Made by a program: the position numbers and the translations under genes. Positions 2,074-17,098 of a stretch of 24,000 nt of DNA are shown here, one piece after another. The first letter of the stretch is position 1. Every line of letters begins with the position of its first letter. The notes under the pieces were generated by a model. It saw only the letters and a program-made list of their open reading frames with translations. It was not told the origin of the DNA and ran no database searches. Origin of the DNA: Schleiferiaceae bacterium. Lineage in GTDB: Bacteria; Bacteroidota; Bacteroidia; Flavobacteriales; Schleiferiaceae. The stretch lies in the NCBI GenBank assembly GCA_041739275.1, contig JBGSOF010000022.1:27313-51312 (forward strand). Direction: 5' to 3'.

Positions 2074-3996
2074 TTAGCGCAGCACGGTTACTGTGCCCGA
2101 ATGAAACTGAAGCCGGGTGTCGTAGTCTTTCAGATACACTTTGACGGCGTAAGTCCCCATCGGACATTCTTCGCCCGTATTGTTGATTTTTCCGTTCCAC
2201 GAAATTCGCGGGTCGTTGCTTTCAAACACTTTAACCCCGATTTTGGAGAAAACTTCGAGCTTGAATTCGCGCCAGTCCCCAATCGGATGGAATTGATATA
2301 CGTCATTCACCCCATCTGCATTCGGGCTAAAGGCATTGATCCAGCGCAGTGTAAGTGGGTCTTCGCAATCCACGCGCTCCACGCGAATCGTGTCTCTGTG
2401 GGTGCCGCAACTGTCGGTCAGCTCTACCCAATAATTGCCCGTTTTGCTAACGATAATGGTGTGTCCGGCATCGCCCGTGCTCCATTCAACATCGCCCTCT
2501 TCTTCAACAGTAAGAATGAGATACTGCCAAGAGCACAGGGTGGTATCCTTGCCCAAATCGAGCTCGGTGCCTTCGTTTTCGCCGATCACCACGGTATCTG
2601 AGGCAGGACAGCCATTTGAATAAGCCTGAACAAAATAGATGCCCGGGCTCAAAACGGTGAGATCAGTACTCGTCTCGCCCGTCGACCACAATACCGAATC
2701 AATGGGCACTGTAGACTGATATTGAAGCAAATAACTTCCACCTTTACACATCAGTCGGTCAGGGCCCAGCGAAACTTGATGGCTGAATTCGGTCATTTCG
2801 ATGGTGTCTGAGGCCGAACATCCATTCAGAAATACCTCTACCCAATAGGTCCCCGTGCTGGAAGCCACGAACAAAGGACCGGTCGATCCATCAGACCATC
2901 GAATTGAATCGGCCATTTCGACATATTCGAGCAAAGCGCTGTTGGGGATGCAAATCGAACGATCGGGGCCGAGATTCGGCTCAACGGGCGGAGTGAGCCA
3001 CGAAACGCGAACACTGTCGGTCGCAATGCACCCACCGGGCAAAATCGCCGTGAGCGAATACCAACCCGAATCGGGGTAGTTCAGAACAAGCGTATCGGCA
3101 ATCGAACCAGTCGACCACAAAAACGACTGTGCCGCAGCTGCAGTGCGCAAGACGATTTGATCGCTTGGGCAGGCAGTCGCTGTTTGACCAAGGCCGAGGC
3201 ATTGACATTCGCTGTACTGAGCGAGCGCTAGAGCGTCGGCACCGTCGAGTACTCTCGAGTAAATGCGCAAGTCGTCGACACTGCCGCGAAAGCCGTTGGA
3301 ACAAAATGCCCCTCCGCTGCCGAGAACTCCCCCGAGTACGAGTTGCGCGTTGGAGCTTGCGAGATCTCCCAAAATGCCTGAGCCGGCTAAAAGCGCGGTC
3401 GACTGGAGATTGCCATTGACATAAATCTTTACCCGATCGGCCCCATCGTTGCCCGAAGCGCTGCCGTCGAATGTAAAGAGCAAATGCGTCCATTGGGCGG
3501 GCGCCAGAACAGAGTTCGAACCGACCGTGCGATACTGCGTGGCCGCTCCGTTGCCCATGTAGCCGGTGAGCGCAGGAGCACCGCTCAGGCTGCGGAGCAA
3601 AAGCGAACGCTGATTCGAACCGCAGGGCGATTGCGAGAATTTGCTCAAAATAGCGGCGTCCGAATGCACAGAGTCGGGGCGTACCCAAAGCCCAATCGAA
3701 AATTGAACTCCGTTGCCCGAGAGTTGGTTGCCGAGGATGTTTCCGAATTTCAGATGAGCTCCCGTTCCGTCTAGAACGTAGGCTCGATCGGGGCAGCCGA
3801 AGCGATCGGGAGTCGTTGCCGCCCCGACCACCGTACCATTGACCCCACCCACATCGGCAGCAGCCGAGCCCTGATCGAAGCTCCAGTGCCCGACGAGTTG
3901 TTGGTTGAGGTTGGTTTGTGCCGCGGAAGAAATCGATCCCATCCCGCACGCGGCAAGCAGCAAGCGTGTGAAAATGTTGTCCATCTTTCCTTTCAT
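2074..3996 (-). CDS. Secreted LamG (concanavalin-A-like lectin) domain protein with four Cys-flanked WSTG repeats and a T9SS type-B C-terminal sorting domain
   Basis: 640 aa with an N-terminal signal-like segment LLLAACGMGSISSAAQ. The LamG-like region spans about aa 35-255 (WSFD..., LWVRPD, DDLRIYSRVL). Four repeats of about 60 aa fall in aa 276-542. The C-terminus INAFSPNADGVNDVYQF...SWNGK...GTYAVKV matches the gliding-motility/T9SS type-B CTD signature (FSPNGDGxND). Confidence 0.9.
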   Translation of the reverse strand: MKGKMDNIFTRLLLAACGMGSISSAAQTNLNQQLVGHWSFDQGSAAADVGGVNGTVVGAATTPDRFGCPDRAYVLDGTGAHLKFGNILGNQLSGNGVQFSIGLWVRPDSVHSDAAILSKFSQSPCGSNQRSLLLRSLSGAPALTGYMGNGAATQYRTVGSNSVLAPAQWTHLLFTFDGSASGNDGADRVKIYVNGNLQSTALLAGSGILGDLASSNAQLVLGGVLGSGGAFCSNGFRGSVDDLRIYSRVLDGADALALAQYSECQCLGLGQTATACPSDQIVLRTAAAAQSFLWSTGSIADTLVLNYPDSGWYSLTAILPGGCIATDSVRVSWLTPPVEPNLGPDRSICIPNSALLEYVEMADSIRWSDGSTGPLFVASSTGTYWVEVFLNGCSASDTIEMTEFSHQVSLGPDRLMCKGGSYLLQYQSTVPIDSVLWSTGETSTDLTVLSPGIYFVQAYSNGCPASDTVVIGENEGTELDLGKDTTLCSWQYLILTVEEEGDVEWSTGDAGHTIIVSKTGNYWVELTDSCGTHRDTIRVERVDCEDPLTLRWINAFSPNADGVNDVYQFHPIGDWREFKLEVFSKIGVKVFESNDPRISWNGKINNTGEECPMGTYAVKVYLKDYDTRLQFHSGTVTVLR

Positions 3997-10043: not shown

Positions 10044-11125
10044 AGCCTTCGAAACAGCTCTTGAACTGCCTTTCGATCGATGCGGTTGTGCCAATCGTGC
10101 CCCAAGGCATGAATCCACATATGCGGCAGATTCAGGCTGACATCGGCCATGGCTTCGATGACCTCATCAGACCAAGTGGCCGAGAGATTCTGCGGCAGTT
10201 CGATGCCGAAGCGCTCGACCATTTCCTTGAATTCGGCGACGGCTTCTCCATAATAATCTTCCAAATGATTGAAAGCAATGCAGTTGGCATATCCGTGTCG
10301 GTATCCCAAAACCTTCGACAATCCGTACGAAAGCGCATGGCAAACCCCCACTTCGCTGTAGGTGAGGCTGAGTCCGCCAAAGAGCGAAGCCACCACGAGC
10401 TTGTCGTCGTTGTCGGGAGTTTGACCTGCATCTGCTCCGAGAAACACCTCTCGGCACAGCTTGAGACTTTGCTCGCCGTAGGCCCTTGAAAATGCGTTTT
10501 TATGGATTCCGGTTTCGCTCTCAACACAGTGGATGTAGGTGTCCATGCCTGTGTAAAACCATTGATTTCGGGGCACGCTCTCGCACAATTCTGGGTCGAG
10601 GATGAGTTCGTCGAAGACCGTCCACTCGCATTTGAGCCCGAGTTTTTTCTCGGGGCCCGTCAAAACGGCCGTGGTGCTGCATTCGGCTCCGGTACCCGCA
10701 ATGGTGGGAATTCCCAAGTGAAATACCCCGGGGGTTTGAATCAAATTCAGGCCTTGATATTGTGTGGAACTGCCGGGATTGGTCAACATCAGGCTCAGTG
10801 CTTTGGCCGTATCCATGGCGCTCCCTCCGCCCACTCCCACGACTCCTGAAGGCAGTCCTTTCAATTTCAATGCCTCGTCGCGAAGGCGATCAATTTGTTC
10901 GGTGGTCGGCTCGTGTACGTCGAAATTCTCGAAAAAAACGAGATCGCTCGATTCAATGCCCAAGCGCTTTAAAAGGGCATGCTCGCGGAATAAATGGTCG
11001 ATTACGAAGACAAAATACCCGTTGTTGTTCCCACGCCTCGGCGATAGCCGTTCAGAGCACTGATCGACCGAGCCCCGGCCGTAAATGAGCTTAGATACCC
11101 CATGCAATACTTTGTGATTCAGCAT
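10040..11125 (-). CDS. Iron-containing (group III) alcohol dehydrogenase family protein
   Basis: 361 aa. The protein has GVGGGSAMDTAKAL (GGGSxxDxAK), IPTIAGTGAECS, and the metal-ligand region GMDTYIHCVE plus VCHALSYGL. It starts 1 nt after the aminotransferase stop. Confidence 0.85.
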   Translation of the reverse strand: MLNHKVLHGVSKLIYGRGSVDQCSERLSPRRGNNNGYFVFVIDHLFREHALLKRLGIESSDLVFFENFDVHEPTTEQIDRLRDEALKLKGLPSGVVGVGGGSAMDTAKALSLMLTNPGSSTQYQGLNLIQTPGVFHLGIPTIAGTGAECSTTAVLTGPEKKLGLKCEWTVFDELILDPELCESVPRNQWFYTGMDTYIHCVESETGIHKNAFSRAYGEQSLKLCREVFLGADAGQTPDNDDKLVVASLFGGLSLTYSEVGVCHALSYGLSKVLGYRHGYANCIAFNHLEDYYGEAVAEFKEMVERFGIELPQNLSATWSDEVIEAMADVSLNLPHMWIHALGHDWHNRIDRKAVQELFRRL

Positions 11126-13284: not shown

Positions 13285-15081
13285 TTGGCGAAGAGATACC
13301 CTCCTGAAAACGAGGAGAAAAAGCCGAAAGCAAGTCTCAAAAGTCTCAAGCGCTCGCTGAGGCTGTACAAGTACATCAAGCCCTATCGCGGGGCCTTTGT
13401 GCTCGGTATGGTCTTTTTGTTCCTCTCGAGCGCGGCCAATTTGGCCTTTCCCAAGTTTCTGGGGGAATTGGTGAGCGCGAGTTCCAAGCCCGATTTCGCC
13501 CAACAATTAGGGCGTATTGCGCTGATTTTGGCGGGGTTGCTCGTGGTTCAGGCGGTATTTTCGTATTTTAGGATTCTGCTGTTCGTCCGGGTGGCCGAAA
13601 AGGGGTTGGCCGCGCTTCGTCAGGCGACGTATTCGAAGATGCTTCGCTTGCCCATGGCGTTTTTCGACCAAAAGCGAGTAGGCGAATTGACGAGTAGGAT
13701 CGCGTCAGACATCAACGTGTTGCAGGATGTCTTTACGTCGACCTTGGCGGAATTCATTCGGCAGTTGATCATTATTGTGGGGGGCATCGGCTTGTTGCTC
13801 TACACTTCTCCGCGGCTGACGCTGATTATGCTGGCTTCGCTGCCGCCTGTGGTGCTGCTCTCGGTGGCCTTTGGGCGTTTTATTCGCCGGTATGCCAAAG
13901 ATGTTTCAAAGATGATGGCCGAGGCTACGACCGTGGTCGAAGAAACTCTTCAGGGCATTGCCAGTGTAAAGAGCTATGCGAATGAGCACTTTGAATTGGG
14001 GCGATACAAAGCGAAAACAGACGCGGTGGCGGCTACCGCGATCAAGGGTGGGGTGTATCGAGCCGGTTTTGCTTCGTTTGTGATTCTCGGTTTGTTTGGA
14101 GCCGTGGTGTTGGTGATTTGGCAAGGCAGTTTGGACATTGCACGAGGCAGCATGGACGCGGGCGATTTGTTCAGTTTTGTGCTGTATTCGAGCTTTATCG
14201 GAGGGTCTATTGGGGGGATGGCGGATGTGTACGCTCGCTTGCAGCGGGCTTCGGGGGCGACGGAGGAACTGCTCGACATTTTTGATCAAGAAGAGGAGCC
14301 GATTCGGCTGGATCCGCCTTTGACTCGCGACCGCTCGCTTCGCGGTGCGCTTGAGTTTGAAAACCTGCGTTTTGCATATCCTTCTCGCCCCGCTTTTGAG
14401 GTGATTAAAGGGCTGAATTTGACGATTGAACCGGGTACGCGAGTGGCTTTGGTGGGTTCGAGTGGGGCAGGCAAGAGCACGCTGATGGCCCTTTTGCTTC
14501 GATTCTACGCGCCGGTTTCGGGTTGCATCAAAATCGATGGACGCAACCTGAACGATTGGGATTTAAGTGGTTATCGTTCACAATTGGCCCTGGTGCCCCA
14601 AGAGGTTTTGCTCTTTGGGGGAACCATTGAAGAGAATATTCGCTACGGCAAGCCGGGGGCTTCTTTGGAGGAAGTGATGGACGCGGCGCGCAAGGCCTAC
14701 GCCCATGATTTTATCGCTTCGTTTCCCGATGGATATCAAACGACGGTGGGCGAGCGCGGCATTCAGTTGAGCGGGGGTCAGCGGCAGCGAATTGCAATTG
14801 CTCGAGCTTTGTTAAACGATCCGGCTCTTTTGCTCTTGGACGAAGCCACTTCTGCCCTCGACAGCGAGTCGGAGTTTTTTGTGCAGAGCGCGCTCGAAGC
14901 ATTGATGACGAACCGCACCAGCTTGGTGATCGCCCATCGCTTGAGCACCATTCGCCAAGCCGACCGCATTCTTGTACTCGACGAAGGCCGCATCGTGGAA
15001 GACGGCTCGCCCGATGCCCTGCTTGCCCGCCCAGACAGCCGCTTCAAAACCCTCTGGGAGCGGCAGTTGTTGGATGATTGA
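13285..15081 (+). CDS. ABC transporter, fused permease/ATPase (ABCB/MsbA-like exporter)
   Basis: 598 aa with an N-terminal six-helix-type TMD. The ATPase motifs are Walker A GSSGAGKST, signature LSGGQRQRIAIARAL, Walker B LLLLDEATSALD and H-loop VIAHRLSTI. The TTG start lies 2 nt after the oxygenase stop. Confidence 0.93.
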   Translation: MAKRYPPENEEKKPKASLKSLKRSLRLYKYIKPYRGAFVLGMVFLFLSSAANLAFPKFLGELVSASSKPDFAQQLGRIALILAGLLVVQAVFSYFRILLFVRVAEKGLAALRQATYSKMLRLPMAFFDQKRVGELTSRIASDINVLQDVFTSTLAEFIRQLIIIVGGIGLLLYTSPRLTLIMLASLPPVVLLSVAFGRFIRRYAKDVSKMMAEATTVVEETLQGIASVKSYANEHFELGRYKAKTDAVAATAIKGGVYRAGFASFVILGLFGAVVLVIWQGSLDIARGSMDAGDLFSFVLYSSFIGGSIGGMADVYARLQRASGATEELLDIFDQEEEPIRLDPPLTRDRSLRGALEFENLRFAYPSRPAFEVIKGLNLTIEPGTRVALVGSSGAGKSTLMALLLRFYAPVSGCIKIDGRNLNDWDLSGYRSQLALVPQEVLLFGGTIEENIRYGKPGASLEEVMDAARKAYAHDFIASFPDGYQTTVGERGIQLSGGQRQRIAIARALLNDPALLLLDEATSALDSESEFFVQSALEALMTNRTSLVIAHRLSTIRQADRILVLDEGRIVEDGSPDALLARPDSRFKTLWERQLLDD

Positions 15082-15085
15082 CTTT

Positions 15086-15300
15086 GGGCAGACACATAGG
15101 ACAGACACATAGGACAGACACATAGGGCAGACATCTAGGGGCAGACGTCTAGGGGCAGACGTCTAGGGGCAGAAGTCTAGGGGCAGACGTCTAGGGGCAG
15201 ACGTCTAGGGGCAGAAGTCTAGGGGCAGAAGTCTAGGGGCAGACGTCTAGGGGCAGACGTCTAGGGGCAGACGTCTAGGGGCAGACACGTAGGTCTGCCC
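15086..15300 (+). repeat. Tandem array of 15 units (3 x 13 bp, 11 x 14 bp, plus a terminal hairpin unit) built on GGCAGAC
   Basis: CAGA(C/A) cores occur at 15089, 15102, 15115, 15128, then every 14 bp to 15282. The canonical unit CAGACGTCTAGGGG contains the 8-bp palindrome AGACGTCT. The variants are CAGAAGTCTAGGGG (3 copies), CAGACATCTAGGGG (1 copy) and (G)ACAGACACATAGG (3 copies). Confidence 0.95.
15279..15300 (+). repeat. REP-like perfect hairpin GGGCAGAC-ACGTAG-GTCTGCCC terminating the array
   Basis: 8-bp perfect stem (15279-15286 pairing with 15293-15300) and a 6-nt loop containing GTAG. It lies 92 nt upstream of the RAYT-like ATG. Confidence 0.8.
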
Positions 15301-15391
15301 TTACGGGGTGTAGGGTATGTATTACATTTTGGTGTAGTTTTACGGGGTCGACTGCGCATTGGCGTGGCCTTACCAAAAAACGAAAATCAGG

Positions 15392-16027
15392 ATGAATCGA
15401 TACAACACCTGTATTCGTCGAAGAAAATCTATTCGATTAAAAGGCTATGATTATTCGCAGGCCGGATTGTATTTTATTACCATTTGTGTTCAAAATAGAC
15501 GGCGTCTGTTTGGAGAAATCGTCGGCAGAGTCGAAGACGCGAGTTTGACGGTTACAAATAAAATGGTATTGAACGAAGCCGGAATCATGGTTAAAAAATG
15601 GTACTTCGAATTGGAAAATAAATTTCCAGATATCCGATGCCACGAAATGGTGGTTATGCCCGACCATTTCCATTGCATTATCGAAAACGTCGGCGGAAAG
15701 GGCGAGGACGCGGGTTCGCCCCAACTTCATAAAATAAACGGGTTTGGCCAAAAAAAGGGCGAACACGCAGGTTCGGGCGAACACGCAGGTTCGCCCCTAT
15801 ACAGGGTGGTGCAATGGTTTAAAACCATGACGACGAACGAATATATCCGCGGTGTAAAAAACAATAATTGGCAACCGTTTAATAGGAAATTATGGCAACG
15901 AAATTATTATGAATGCATCATTCGAAGCGAACAATCCTTTAAAACTATTTCGAAATACATTGTCAATAATCCCGCAAAATGGAGTTTAAAACTCACTTGG
16001 AAATACAACGATTATCGACAACATTAA
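15392..16027 (+). CDS. REP-associated tyrosine transposase-like protein (RAYT; IS200-like Y1/HUH transposase family)
   Basis: The N-terminus RRRKSIRLKGYDYSQAGLYFITICVQNRRRLFG, the HUH motif in MPDHFHCII, and the C-terminal block VQWFKTMTTNEYIRG...KLWQRNYYECIIRSE are characteristic of COG1943-type RAYTs. The ATG at 15392 is preferred over the track's TTG at 15359. Confidence 0.85.
   Translation: MNRYNTCIRRRKSIRLKGYDYSQAGLYFITICVQNRRRLFGEIVGRVEDASLTVTNKMVLNEAGIMVKKWYFELENKFPDIRCHEMVVMPDHFHCIIENVGGKGEDAGSPQLHKINGFGQKKGEHAGSGEHAGSPLYRVVQWFKTMTTNEYIRGVKNNNWQPFNRKLWQRNYYECIIRSEQSFKTISKYIVNNPAKWSLKLTWKYNDYRQH
15700..15796 (+). repeat. Three in-frame hairpin-type repeats inside the RAYT ORF, including an exact 18-bp tandem duplication
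   Basis: The copies are GGGCGAGG-ACGCGG-GTTCGCCC (15700-15721, imperfect), GGGCGAAC-ACGCAG-GTTCGGGC (15757-15778) and GGGCGAAC-ACGCAG-GTTCGCCC (15775-15796, perfect 8-bp stem). Bases 15757-15774 equal 15775-15792 exactly. They encode GEDAGSP, GEHAGS and GEHAGSP. Confidence 0.85.
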
Positions 16028-16072
16028 AGCCTATGGCGTCTATCACTCAAAACGTAGGATTCCAATTCCCCA

Positions 16073-17098
16073 CTACCCCACCGCTTTGCGATACGCCTTA
16101 AAATCTGCCCAAACTATTGATGCAGGGCGTTTTGGGGCGAGGCCGTTGTGGCGGGCGATGCGCGCGAGGAGCGACCAGTAGTTGAGGAGCGTTTTTTGCG
16201 CCTCCCAGAACGAAAAACCCGGACTGTAGATGTGTGTCGGCTCGCTCGCCGCACCGTTGAGTTCGATGATACAAAAATCGCGGCCTTCGAGCAAAGCCTC
16301 CCATGAAGCCGCCTTCAGGTCGAAACGCCCAAAATGGAACCCCTGGATAGACGCACTCAACGACTGCATTCGCTCCACCAAACGAGCGTCGATACGTTCT
16401 CGCGCATCGAGAAAAATCGTGCCTCGATTGTGATTTCCAATCGGCTGACAGCGAACAACTTCTCCATGGGCCGGAAGTAGATTCAAAATCAGATCGTCCA
16501 CGCGATCCAAATAGCGACAAAAACGCGGATGCGCCTCCAAGAGCACGCGAACCGTGCGCACACCATCGCCTACCACCTCCATAAACTGCTTGTCGCATAC
16601 CGAAACCACGCGGAAACGATCCTCGCCCGGATAGCGAACGACGAAGACTCCATACTCGAAGGGAAAATCACAGTACTTCTGCAGGATGTGCGGACGCTCG
16701 ATCGCCCCCAATGCCGCCACCGCCTCGGCCTCGTCGCGCAAAAGGCGCACACCAATGCCCCGTTCGCCCACCTCAGGCTTCAAAACCAGAGGAAAAGACC
16801 TGCCCAAACGCTCCAATACCCCTCCCGCCTCCACAGGCTTCAAAGCGCGTTCAACCACCTCGTATTCGGGAACAAATTCGGTTGGAAGCAAGCGCAGCAC
16901 ATCGCTCTTTCGATATCCAAACAACCCTCCGTATTCGATGGCCGGATTGACGGCCGAAAGCCAATCTAAACGACCGAAGCGAATCACATAAAAAACATAC
17001 CGAAAAAACACCAAGGGATATACCCAGGTATAGGGCCAAAACTCCCAAGCCCCGAAAAGCAGCGACATCCGGGCAAACAACCTCACCCCAGCGCGCAC
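16073..17098 (-). CDS. ATP-grasp fold amidoligase-like protein with a hydrophobic N-terminal anchor
   Basis: The ATP-grasp hallmarks are PLVLKPEVGERGIGVRLL (Lys plus Gly-rich loop), ILQKYCDFPFEYGVFVV, GRFDLKA and CIIELNGAASEPTH (the ExN metal site). The N-terminal roughly 40 aa are aromatic and hydrophobic (WEFWPYTWVYPLVFFRYVFYVI). The GTG at 17098 overlaps the NRDE gene by 16 nt. The alternative ATG at 17068 lies 14 nt after the NRDE stop. Confidence 0.72.
   Translation of the reverse strand: MRAGVRLFARMSLLFGAWEFWPYTWVYPLVFFRYVFYVIRFGRLDWLSAVNPAIEYGGLFGYRKSDVLRLLPTEFVPEYEVVERALKPVEAGGVLERLGRSFPLVLKPEVGERGIGVRLLRDEAEAVAALGAIERPHILQKYCDFPFEYGVFVVRYPGEDRFRVVSVCDKQFMEVVGDGVRTVRVLLEAHPRFCRYLDRVDDLILNLLPAHGEVVRCQPIGNHNRGTIFLDARERIDARLVERMQSLSASIQGFHFGRFDLKAASWEALLEGRDFCIIELNGAASEPTHIYSPGFSFWEAQKTLLNYWSLLARIARHNGLAPKRPASIVWADFKAYRKAVG

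Follow-up and report, generated by a model that had tools for sequence, protein, structure and literature searches.

A tandem array of fourteen partial REP units that ends in one complete REP hairpin separates an ABC exporter gene from a RAYT gene in the DNA examined here, a 24,000-nt stretch of a Bacteroidota chromosome (hereafter ‘the window’) that also encodes a CHU_C type IX secretion signal protein, carB, ribBA and NDH-2. We consider it likely that this locus is a ‘REPtron’, composed of a RAYT of subclass 2.4 and its cognate REP, in which one arm of the hairpin plus its loop has been amplified by slippage-type expansion, with a probably neutral outcome. Partial-REP tandem arrays are a feature of this family as a whole; the array in the window, with 15 arms, is the longest encountered in our survey and is not unique in kind. 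It represents an extreme example of known RAYT/REP biology rather than a new system, and the finding in the window itself is mostly explained by published biology. Half-REP arrays whose periods are filtered for reading frame inside genes occur throughout the family, and this pattern does not appear to have been described in the REP/RAYT literature that we examined.

The multiplication of REPs and the cellular role of RAYTs are poorly understood. The observation that the REPs of one RAYT subclass repeatedly spawn half-hairpin arrays, in and around the gene as well as at dispersed copies, provides a testable handle on REP instability, whether this instability results from slippage or from enzyme action. 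Half-hairpin arrays also explain the hypervariable insert of subclass 2.4 proteins. The pattern should be of moderate interest to REP/RAYT specialists, and it carries two warnings for annotation: half-REP arrays break short-read assemblies, and the recurring peptides GADLRVCP and GEHxGSPL come from hairpin DNA and vary with it.

Structure of the array and its terminal hairpin

The layout of the array, including its start 5 nt past the exporter TGA, had been described in an earlier reading of this DNA made from the sequence alone (the sequence-only reading), and our analysis agrees with that description base for base (Table 1). Tandem Repeats Finder assigns the array a period of 14 with 11.6 copies, 96% matches and a score of 296, and recognizes within it a second block with a period of 13 and 3.5 copies. 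The 14-mer, when up to two mismatches are allowed, occurs 11 times, compared with 0.10 occurrences expected from shuffled sequences, and the hairpin pattern occurs once, compared with an expectation of 0.00.

Table 1. Coordinates of the array, the hairpins and the neighbouring genes in the window.
Feature	Position	Strand	Description
MsbA-like ABC exporter	13285–15081	+	Stop TGA 15079–15081, 5 nt before the array; context only
Half-REP array plus terminal hairpin	15086–15300	+	14 head-to-tail partial units, then 1 perfect hairpin
Proximal array part	15086–15138	+	Four units: 14, 13, 13 and 13 nt
Proximal unit 1	15086–15099		GGGCAGACACATAG
Proximal units 2 and 3	15100–15112, 15113–15125		Both GACAGACACATAG
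Proximal unit 4	15126–15138		GGCAGACATCTAG
Ten 14-nt units	15139–15278	+	GGGCAGA[C/A]GTCTAG; order C C A C C A A C C C
Complete REP hairpin	15279–15300	+	GGGCAGAC-ACGTAG-GTCTGCCC; perfect 8-bp stem, 6-nt loop
RAYT / TnpA_REP gene, assigned to subclass 2.4 (Group 4)	15392–16027	+	211 aa from ATG
Degenerate in-ORF REP	15700–15721	+	GGGCGAGGACGCGGGTTCGCCC; encodes GEDAGSP; just past the HUH motif
In-ORF repeat	15757–15796	+	18-nt partial copy (left arm, loop, GTTC), then the REP at 15775–15796
In-ORF REP	15775–15796	+	GGGCGAAC-ACGCAG-GTTCGCCC; perfect hairpin

Within the uniform block of ten units, the C unit reads GGGCAGACGTCTAG and the A unit reads GGGCAGAAGTCTAG, and the 14-nt unit corresponds to the REP left arm GGGCAGAC followed by the loop variant GTCTAG. 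The proximal units are likewise composed of a left arm, (G)G[G/A]CAGAC, and a 6-nt block. Read along the array, these blocks are ACATAG (three times), ATCTAG (once), GTCTAG or its A-variant (ten times) and finally ACGTAG in the true hairpin. The ATCTAG block is intermediate between ACATAG and GTCTAG, and ACATAG is the commonest loop among hairpins of the same REP family elsewhere. The array is therefore parsed most economically as fourteen repeats, each made of a left arm and a loop-like block of 6 nt, with a single right arm at the end, and its proximal part is the older-looking end. This parse preserves the view of the sequence-only reading that the units are partial hairpins that begin with the left arm. 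Its further proposal, that each unit ends with the first 4 nt of the right arm, is no better than a division into the left arm and a 6-nt loop variant (ACATAG, ATCTAG or GTCTAG), which fits at least as well.

The left flank of the array is CTTT, not GTAG. The units abut without spacers, which distinguishes them from those of a CRISPR array. The array is not crossed by any ORF, and the period of its CTAG motif is not a multiple of three, such that all six frames are blocked; the array is non-coding, as had been supposed. A 10-nt inverted match is also present between TTTGGGCAGA (15083–15092) and TCTGCCCAAA (16104–16113, inside the end of the neighbouring gene), and it may be due to chance.

The complete hairpin is located 92 nt upstream of the RAYT start codon and is the only intergenic REP copy within the 24-kb window. 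It is a perfect palindrome with three G-C pairs at the bottom of the stem and a short loop, as is characteristic of GTAG-type REPs, and it shares with this type the association with a RAYT. Its flanks, CTAG (5ʹ) and TTAC (3ʹ), are each one mismatch away from the GTAG / CTAC ‘double foot’, and its loop ends in GTAG. REPs of subclass 2.4 have been described as having either three G-C pairs at the base of the stem or a ‘double foot’ of the form 5ʹ GT[AG]G ... C[TC]AC 3ʹ (PMC6006769), and Table S1 of that report (Quentin et al. 2018) lists a subclass 2.4 REP with the sequence GTAGGGGCAGAC-CGGCGC-GTCTGCCC, i.e. GTAGGGGCAGAC-N6-GTCTGCCC. By sequence, the intergenic hairpin matches this catalogued REP type. 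The earlier suggestion of a terminal REP linked to the neighbouring RAYT is borne out both by this entry and by the presence of the same hairpin in or next to homologous genes in a set of 80 loci. One homologous locus (L065) carries an identical GGGCAGAC-ACGTAG-GTCTGCCC hairpin 44 nt upstream of its RAYT homologue. No REP partner was found downstream of the RAYT gene in the window.

The RAYT gene and its internal hairpins

The protein encoded downstream of the array scores 25.9 bits against the Pfam family Y1_Tnp, above the cutoff of 23, and 57.7 bits against the NCBIfam family REP_Tyr_transpos, below the equivalog cutoff of 80. The insert splits the latter match into two stretches. A total of 7627 homologues were identified in the protein collection, mostly from Bacteroidota, with lengths of 184–289 aa and a best identity of 65%. 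A profile built from the RAYT alignment recovers PDB entry 4ER8 (E. coli TnpA_REP) with an E value of 0.0014 over the HUH and Tyr regions; a single-sequence search of the PDB with the window protein gave no match. The HUH motif in the window is MPDHFHCII, in which H-F-H is kept and N is replaced by D. Among aligned homologues, 26 of 27 carry NH[FIM]H and one (P0026) carries DHFH. The window protein also carries KLWQRNYYE and KYIVNNPAKW, whose columns are invariant or nearly so in the alignment. The published signature of subclass 2.4 is NH[IFV]H, WQ and YIxNNP (PMC6006769 Table 1), and the window RAYT carries the HuH motif together with both WQ and YIxNNP. As judged from these motifs, the gene is assigned to the published TnpA_Y1 subclass 2.4 (PMC6006769), which is equivalent to RAYT Group 4 (Bertels et al. 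2017, PMC5581495).

Two hairpins inside the RAYT ORF (15700–15721 and 15775–15796) leave its reading frame intact. The first occupies the site where most homologues have an inverted hairpin that encodes GADLRVCP, and its orientation is opposite to that of this usual hairpin of subclass 2.4. The second is part of a repeat that encodes GEHAGS-GEHAGSP and that is the in-frame counterpart of the intergenic array. REPs within subclass 2.4 ORFs were already published in 2018: members of the subclass were reported to have in-frame REPs between HuH and Y, and a variable insertion domain with short repeats (PMC6006769).

The same arrangement is widespread among the 80 homologous loci, which were taken from species-representative genomes and derive from Bacteroidota, Chloroflexota, Gamma- and Deltaproteobacteria, Nitrospirae, KSB1, Marinimicrobia, Planctomycetota and others. 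In 61 of the 80 loci, the RAYT ORF contains one or more perfect hairpins of the REP type, and such hairpins are found within 400 nt upstream of the gene in 20 loci and within 400 nt downstream in 13. The distant flanks, which comprise 1.03 Mb over the 80 loci, contain only 21 REP-type hairpins (approximately 20 per Mb). For comparison, 16-mers flanking Group 4 genes have been reported to occur about 14 times per replicon (Bertels 2017, PMC5581495). Relative to the start of the RAYT match, which approximates the gene start, the in-ORF hairpins have median offsets of +273 nt when inverted and +372 nt when in forward orientation. The loops of GGGCAGAC / GTCTGCCC hairpins in the homologous loci are of the ACRYRG type.

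Two conserved peptides of the homologues, GADLRVCP just past the HUH motif and GEHxGSPL before the RVVQWFKTMTTNEY helix, are translations of these hairpins. The former is encoded by GGGCAGAC-CTACGT-GTCTGCCC, which is the intergenic hairpin of the window with its loop reverse-complemented, and the latter is encoded by GGGCGAAC-ACRYRG-GTTCGCCC. Variation in the stem is two-sided, such that GGGCGCAC/GTGCGCCC yields GAHxGAP, and some homologues have no hairpin at the GEHxGSPL / GAHxGAP site. The two-sided changes and the absence of the hairpin in some homologues place the constraint on the hairpin itself, as DNA or RNA, rather than on the peptide that it encodes. Our literature search found no report of hairpin-encoded peptides (GADLRVCP, GEHVGSPL and others).

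The locus thus shares many features with the published subclass 2.4 REPtron (PMC6006769, PMC5581495), including the protein motifs, the perfect 8-bp stem with three bottom G-C pairs and a 6-nt loop, the variable insertion domain holding short repeats, a distribution that is mainly within Bacteroidota and patchy elsewhere, and REPs of low genomic copy number. The published REPtron, however, has whole REPs and unspecified ‘short repeats’ inside the gene, whereas the window carries an intergenic head-to-tail array of 14 partial REPs that ends in one complete REP, and the feet of this REP are degenerate (CTAG / TTAC).

Partial-REP arrays across the family

Tandem Repeats Finder was applied to 81 loci, and repeat units were filtered with a loose REP-arm pattern. 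This survey yielded 58 arrays that match the pattern, 49 of which have only part of the hairpin in each unit. A few distant members of this latter group are not REP-derived; the REP-derived partial arrays number approximately 40. The sequence-only reading knew of no precedent for the array in the window, a view that these examples and the short repeats and in-frame REPs published in 2018 overturn.

Of the 49 partial arrays, 32 reside inside ORFs, and the period of all but one of these is a multiple of three (12 to 36 nt); the lone exception is a weak call with 62% matches. Another ten lie within 500 nt of the gene, and four of these have periods that are not multiples of three (14, 16, 16 and 17 nt). 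The remaining seven are farther away, and three of these are clearly REP-derived (one in L011 and two in L037). Array periods are therefore frame-filtered inside ORFs and are not filtered outside them. The near-exclusive presence of frame-keeping arrays inside ORFs is as expected if frequent neutral events are filtered by selection. Overall, the periods of the homologous arrays range from 12 to 36 nt (including 12, 13, 14, 15, 16, 17, 18, 21 and 24 nt) and have no preferred phase. A landing pad for proteins on one helical face, which the sequence-only reading had offered as a possible role for the 14-nt period, is rejected because of this variation.

The closest analogues of the array in the window are present in four loci. 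In a cultured isolate of Tenacibaculum piscium (L027), an array of 4.9 left-arm units, each 18 nt long, leads into a complete GGGCGAAC-ACATAG-GTTCGCCC hairpin located 49 nt upstream of the RAYT start. In L037, the left-arm units measure 21 nt (GGGCGGAC-ACGTTTATAACAA) and lie ahead of a complete hairpin, and adjacent REPIN-like copies carry four and seven partial units, respectively. In L011, 4.6 units of 21 nt that are 100% identical follow a complete hairpin, and L017 carries 9.8 right-arm units of 12 nt inside the ORF.

Additional examples were recovered from metagenomes by using three GGGCAGAC arms at a 14-nt period as the query. Most of the 82 stretches returned are unrelated, generic 14-nt repeats, and about a dozen end in a REP hairpin. 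The latter have the architecture (left arm plus loop)n, right arm and CTAC, and are represented by L087, L091/L109, L098/L146, L105/L115/L134, L122 and L139. The GTCTAG unit is absent from all 82 stretches. None of the dozen or so arrays has a RAYT on its contig, so adjacency to a RAYT gene is not required. One stretch (L115) contains six tandem REPIN-like units of 133–147 nt with arm counts of 4, 4, 4, 3, 2 and 3. Array copy number changes quickly between neighbouring copies, as is observed here and in L037.

Two other classes of genetic elements resemble the locus in part. BIMEs and REP clusters of E. coli and Pseudomonas (Nunvar 2010, PMC2817692; Di Nocera 2013, PMC3733652) also consist of tandem, REP-containing intergenic units that often lie just past a stop codon and beside RAYT genes. 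The units of BIMEs, however, are complete REPs in alternating orientation with spacers between them, whereas the window carries abutting half hairpins in one orientation, of which only the last can fold as a REP. True BIME-like clusters are found in L042 and L115, and the array in the window is not one of them. IS200/IS605 elements, which have subterminal hairpins with guide tetranucleotides, likewise combine a Y1 HUH enzyme and activity on single-stranded DNA with a hairpin that carries a tetranucleotide at its 5ʹ side. In contrast to those elements, the window has no distinct pair of left-end and right-end hairpins bounding the gene and no TnpB gene, and its RAYT is apparently single-copy and resides in a housekeeping chromosomal context.

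Origin, possible function and reliability of the array

The array most likely arose when a REP expanded in the manner of a microsatellite, through slippage or possibly with help from the RAYT. The sequence-only reading had proposed slippage, or abortive cleavage and rejoining, at a REP, and either is a reasonable origin. In the series of events that we envisage, the left arm plus loop (14 nt) would have multiplied head-to-tail to give the 14 partial units, which lie on the far side of the hairpin from the gene. This process would have begun with a duplication of the arm plus loop at the hairpin and would have continued through ordinary slipped-strand expansion and contraction accompanied by point mutation. 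Diverged ACATAG and ATCTAG units would then have remained at the distal end, and GTCTAG, together with its C-to-A subvariant, would have expanded in the middle of the array.

Head-to-tail units of high identity, interspersed A and C variants, diverged units at the distal edge and differences in copy number between paralogous copies are all typical of slippage in microsatellites and minisatellites, and the interspersion of the two variants suggests higher-order duplication. The array differs from a microsatellite in that its unit is bounded by a hairpin structure that an HUH nuclease recognizes, and thus the enzyme or hairpin-induced stalling may seed or speed the process. Moreover, in the window, L115, L122 and L037 the duplicated segment is delimited by landmarks of the hairpin (the first stem base and the junction of the loop and right arm), which indicates that the hairpin, or an enzyme recognizing it, probably seeds the first duplication. 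Little flanking microhomology is evident for this first duplication. Two simple rules were considered and rejected. Seeding by GTAGG microhomology, in which the foot and the loop both read GTAGG at a distance of 14 nt, is not general because the left boundaries of the window array, L115, L122, L037 and L087 lack a GTAG foot. A single orientation rule, in which arrays always lie on the head side of the REP, is contradicted by L017, L091 and L098.

A more direct involvement of the enzyme can be envisioned, in which the array is a footprint of RAYT catalysis: single-stranded DNA would be cleaved at CT dinucleotides, and strand transfer between sister copies would lengthen or shorten the array by exactly one arm-plus-loop unit. 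RAYT enzymes are reported to cleave at CT or CA located 5ʹ or 3ʹ of REPs, with the GTAG foot guiding the choice of site (PMC8266576). In a REP with a double foot, GTAG-GGGCAGAC-C/TACGT-GTCTGCCC-C/TAC (slashes mark the sites), the CT sites of the loop and the 3ʹ foot on the REP strand are exactly 14 nt apart, and the bottom strand of the array has CT every 14 nt, with a loop of CTACGT and units of CTAGAC-GTCTGCCC. Every bottom-strand unit starts with CT in both the window and L115, and short repeats are a reported peculiarity of subclass 2.4 (PMC6006769). We nevertheless regard this account as unlikely. The intergenic arrays of homologues have periods of 12, 15, 16, 17, 18 and 21 nt, with no preference for 14 nt, and some 14-nt arrays have no CT at the junction (TT in L122 and L139; AG in L087). 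Arrays also occur on either side of hairpins and in either orientation, and the graded series ACATAG, ATCTAG and GTCTAG resembles point mutation rather than precise joining. The varied periods, the junctions without CT and the placement of arrays on either side lead us to rank slippage first and enzyme-mediated rearrangement second, even though slippage and CT cleavage cannot be separated for the array in the window taken by itself. Quite unlikely, in our estimation, is the bolder proposal that partial-REP arrays, in the window and across subclass 2.4, are footprints left in vivo when RAYTs cleave and transfer strands at the CT sites of the loop and stem foot, with a stronger version holding that a gene-proximal array titrates or regulates the RAYT. 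If the footprint proposal is true, array length and unit phase would record enzyme activity, and the site choice of RAYTs could be read from genomes alone.

We find it improbable that the array is a selected element, i.e. a multi-site platform for binding of the RAYT or another protein that controls RAYT expression, or an RNA element that terminates or stabilizes the exporter transcript. The array is placed between the exporter stop, at a distance of 5 nt, and the start of the RAYT, and REPs have been reported to affect mRNA stability and termination (PMC3733652, PMC2817692). The array also folds better than shuffled sequences (z = -5.65 as DNA; z = -2.92 as RNA); neighbouring C units can pair as AGACGTCT-AGGGGC-AGACGTCT, and several 8-bp stems form in single-strand folding. 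However, the length, sequence and copy number of the unit are unconserved among homologous loci, the unit sequence is private to this genome, the particular GTCTAG unit being missing from the metagenome stretches, and RAYT binding requires a complete hairpin (PMC8266576), which half units do not have. The hairpin at 15279–15300 is followed by TTACGGGG, which offers no T-run for an intrinsic terminator; a terminator scan returned only a weak site at 15299–15315, and the count was not above that of shuffles; and a search of Rfam with E values up to 1 over positions 14900–16200 produced no match. Overall, our analysis gives no evidence for a dedicated function, which is unlikely, and the array is probably a neutral by-product. 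Because it begins 5 nt past the exporter stop and contains several 8-bp stems, it may influence the exporter mRNA at its 3ʹ end as a side effect.

The window was also compared with independent short-read data from the same organism (Logan assemblies of SRR28170466, -67, -68 and -74). A contig of SRR28170474 matches exactly the exporter end and the first six array units (three of 13/14 nt, the ATCTAG unit and the initial C units), and then stops inside the array. This exact match in an independent assembly confirms the left part of the array, and the number of C and A units of 14 nt rests on the assembly of the window itself. Another Logan contig ends inside the in-ORF 18-nt repeat. That two independent contigs stop within such repeats, and that the uniform part of the array (15139–15278; 140 nt) is close in length to a typical short read, which makes copy number hard to resolve, could suggest that misassembly produced the array or at least set its length. 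Such an artefact is highly improbable, as the contig of SRR28170474 agrees exactly with the left end and first units, a collapsed or looped graph does not produce interspersed A and C variants, and comparable arrays are present in many independent assemblies, including that of a cultured isolate.

Hairpins within the reading frame

The RAYT ORF of the window holds its own REP hairpins, one perfect and one degenerate. Because most homologues carry an inverted hairpin encoding GADLRVCP at the site of the degenerate copy, this copy appears to be orientation-flipped relative to theirs. In a subgroup of homologues (loci L014, L022, L034, L043, L056, L062, L066, L072 and L076), the usually conserved GEHxGSPL site, which precedes the WFKTM motif, lacks a hairpin and carries NKKYNAT-like sequence in its place. 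This subgroup shows that the RAYT protein can do without the hairpin-encoded peptide.

Both the 14-mer array and the in-ORF 18-mer repeat terminate independent short-read contigs from the same organism (L169 and L170, respectively; Logan SRR28170474). The full-length RAYT protein is absent from the protein collection because short-read contigs end in both repeats.

Features located in the window and in related sequences
Feature	Position	Strand	Remarks
Laminin_G_3 protein	window 2074-3996	-	640 aa; CHU_C type IX secretion signal
10-nt inverted repeat	window 15083-15092 / 16104-16113		perfect; TTTGGGCAGA / TCTGCCCAAA
Degenerate in-ORF REP hairpin	window 15700-15721		encodes GEDAGSP
Perfect in-ORF REP hairpin with preceding 18-nt partial tandem copy	window 15757-15796		encodes GEHAGS-GEHAGSP
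ORF, 341 aa	window 16073-17098	-	faint similarity only, to RimK and cyanophycin-synthetase-type ATP-grasp domains
RAYT homologue P0059	L004 2960-3790
Matching partial-REP array stretches	L027 9756-9939 vs 10287-10452
REPIN-like cluster	L115 1-800		six units in tandem, 133-147 nt long; metagenome Ga0233403
14-mer array at contig end	L169 6667-6748
In-ORF 18-mer repeat at contig end	L170 10280-10319

Possible hairpin copying and a possibly relocated gene

In the Tenacibaculum piscium locus (L027), the upstream flank and the interior of the RAYT ORF share the same two 18-nt partial-REP arrays. Given this likeness, it looks as if the gene's internal pair of hairpins, one inverted and one forward, was copied out of the gene or into it. 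The homologue P0059 (locus L004) lies in a type I restriction-modification operon, between hsdS and hsdR, with a gap of ~40 nt upstream and none downstream, and near its N-terminus it carries an in-frame array of whole hairpins (six copies of 24 nt, encoding NADLCVCP repeats). This placement, together with the in-frame array, suggests a recent move of the RAYT gene.

A REPIN-like cluster and neighbouring features

Each unit of the cluster in the metagenome stretch L115 combines a forward GGGCAGAC REP, with two to four arms, and an inverted GGGCGAAC REP, and ~30 nt of flank (GGTAATTATAAGCCAGAGCCATATCATAAC) recurs in every unit. The upstream reading frame (LRGNYKPEPYHN) may be similar to the N-terminal part of group II intron reverse transcriptases.

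In the window, the Laminin_G_3/CHU_C protein places the stretch in Bacteroidota. The 10-nt inverted repeat flanks the array and RAYT gene on both sides, its right copy falling in the final codons of the ATP-grasp-like gene, which is convergent; the repeat may be a relic of a REP or a coincidence. A TANGO2-like gene comes next after the 341-aa ORF.
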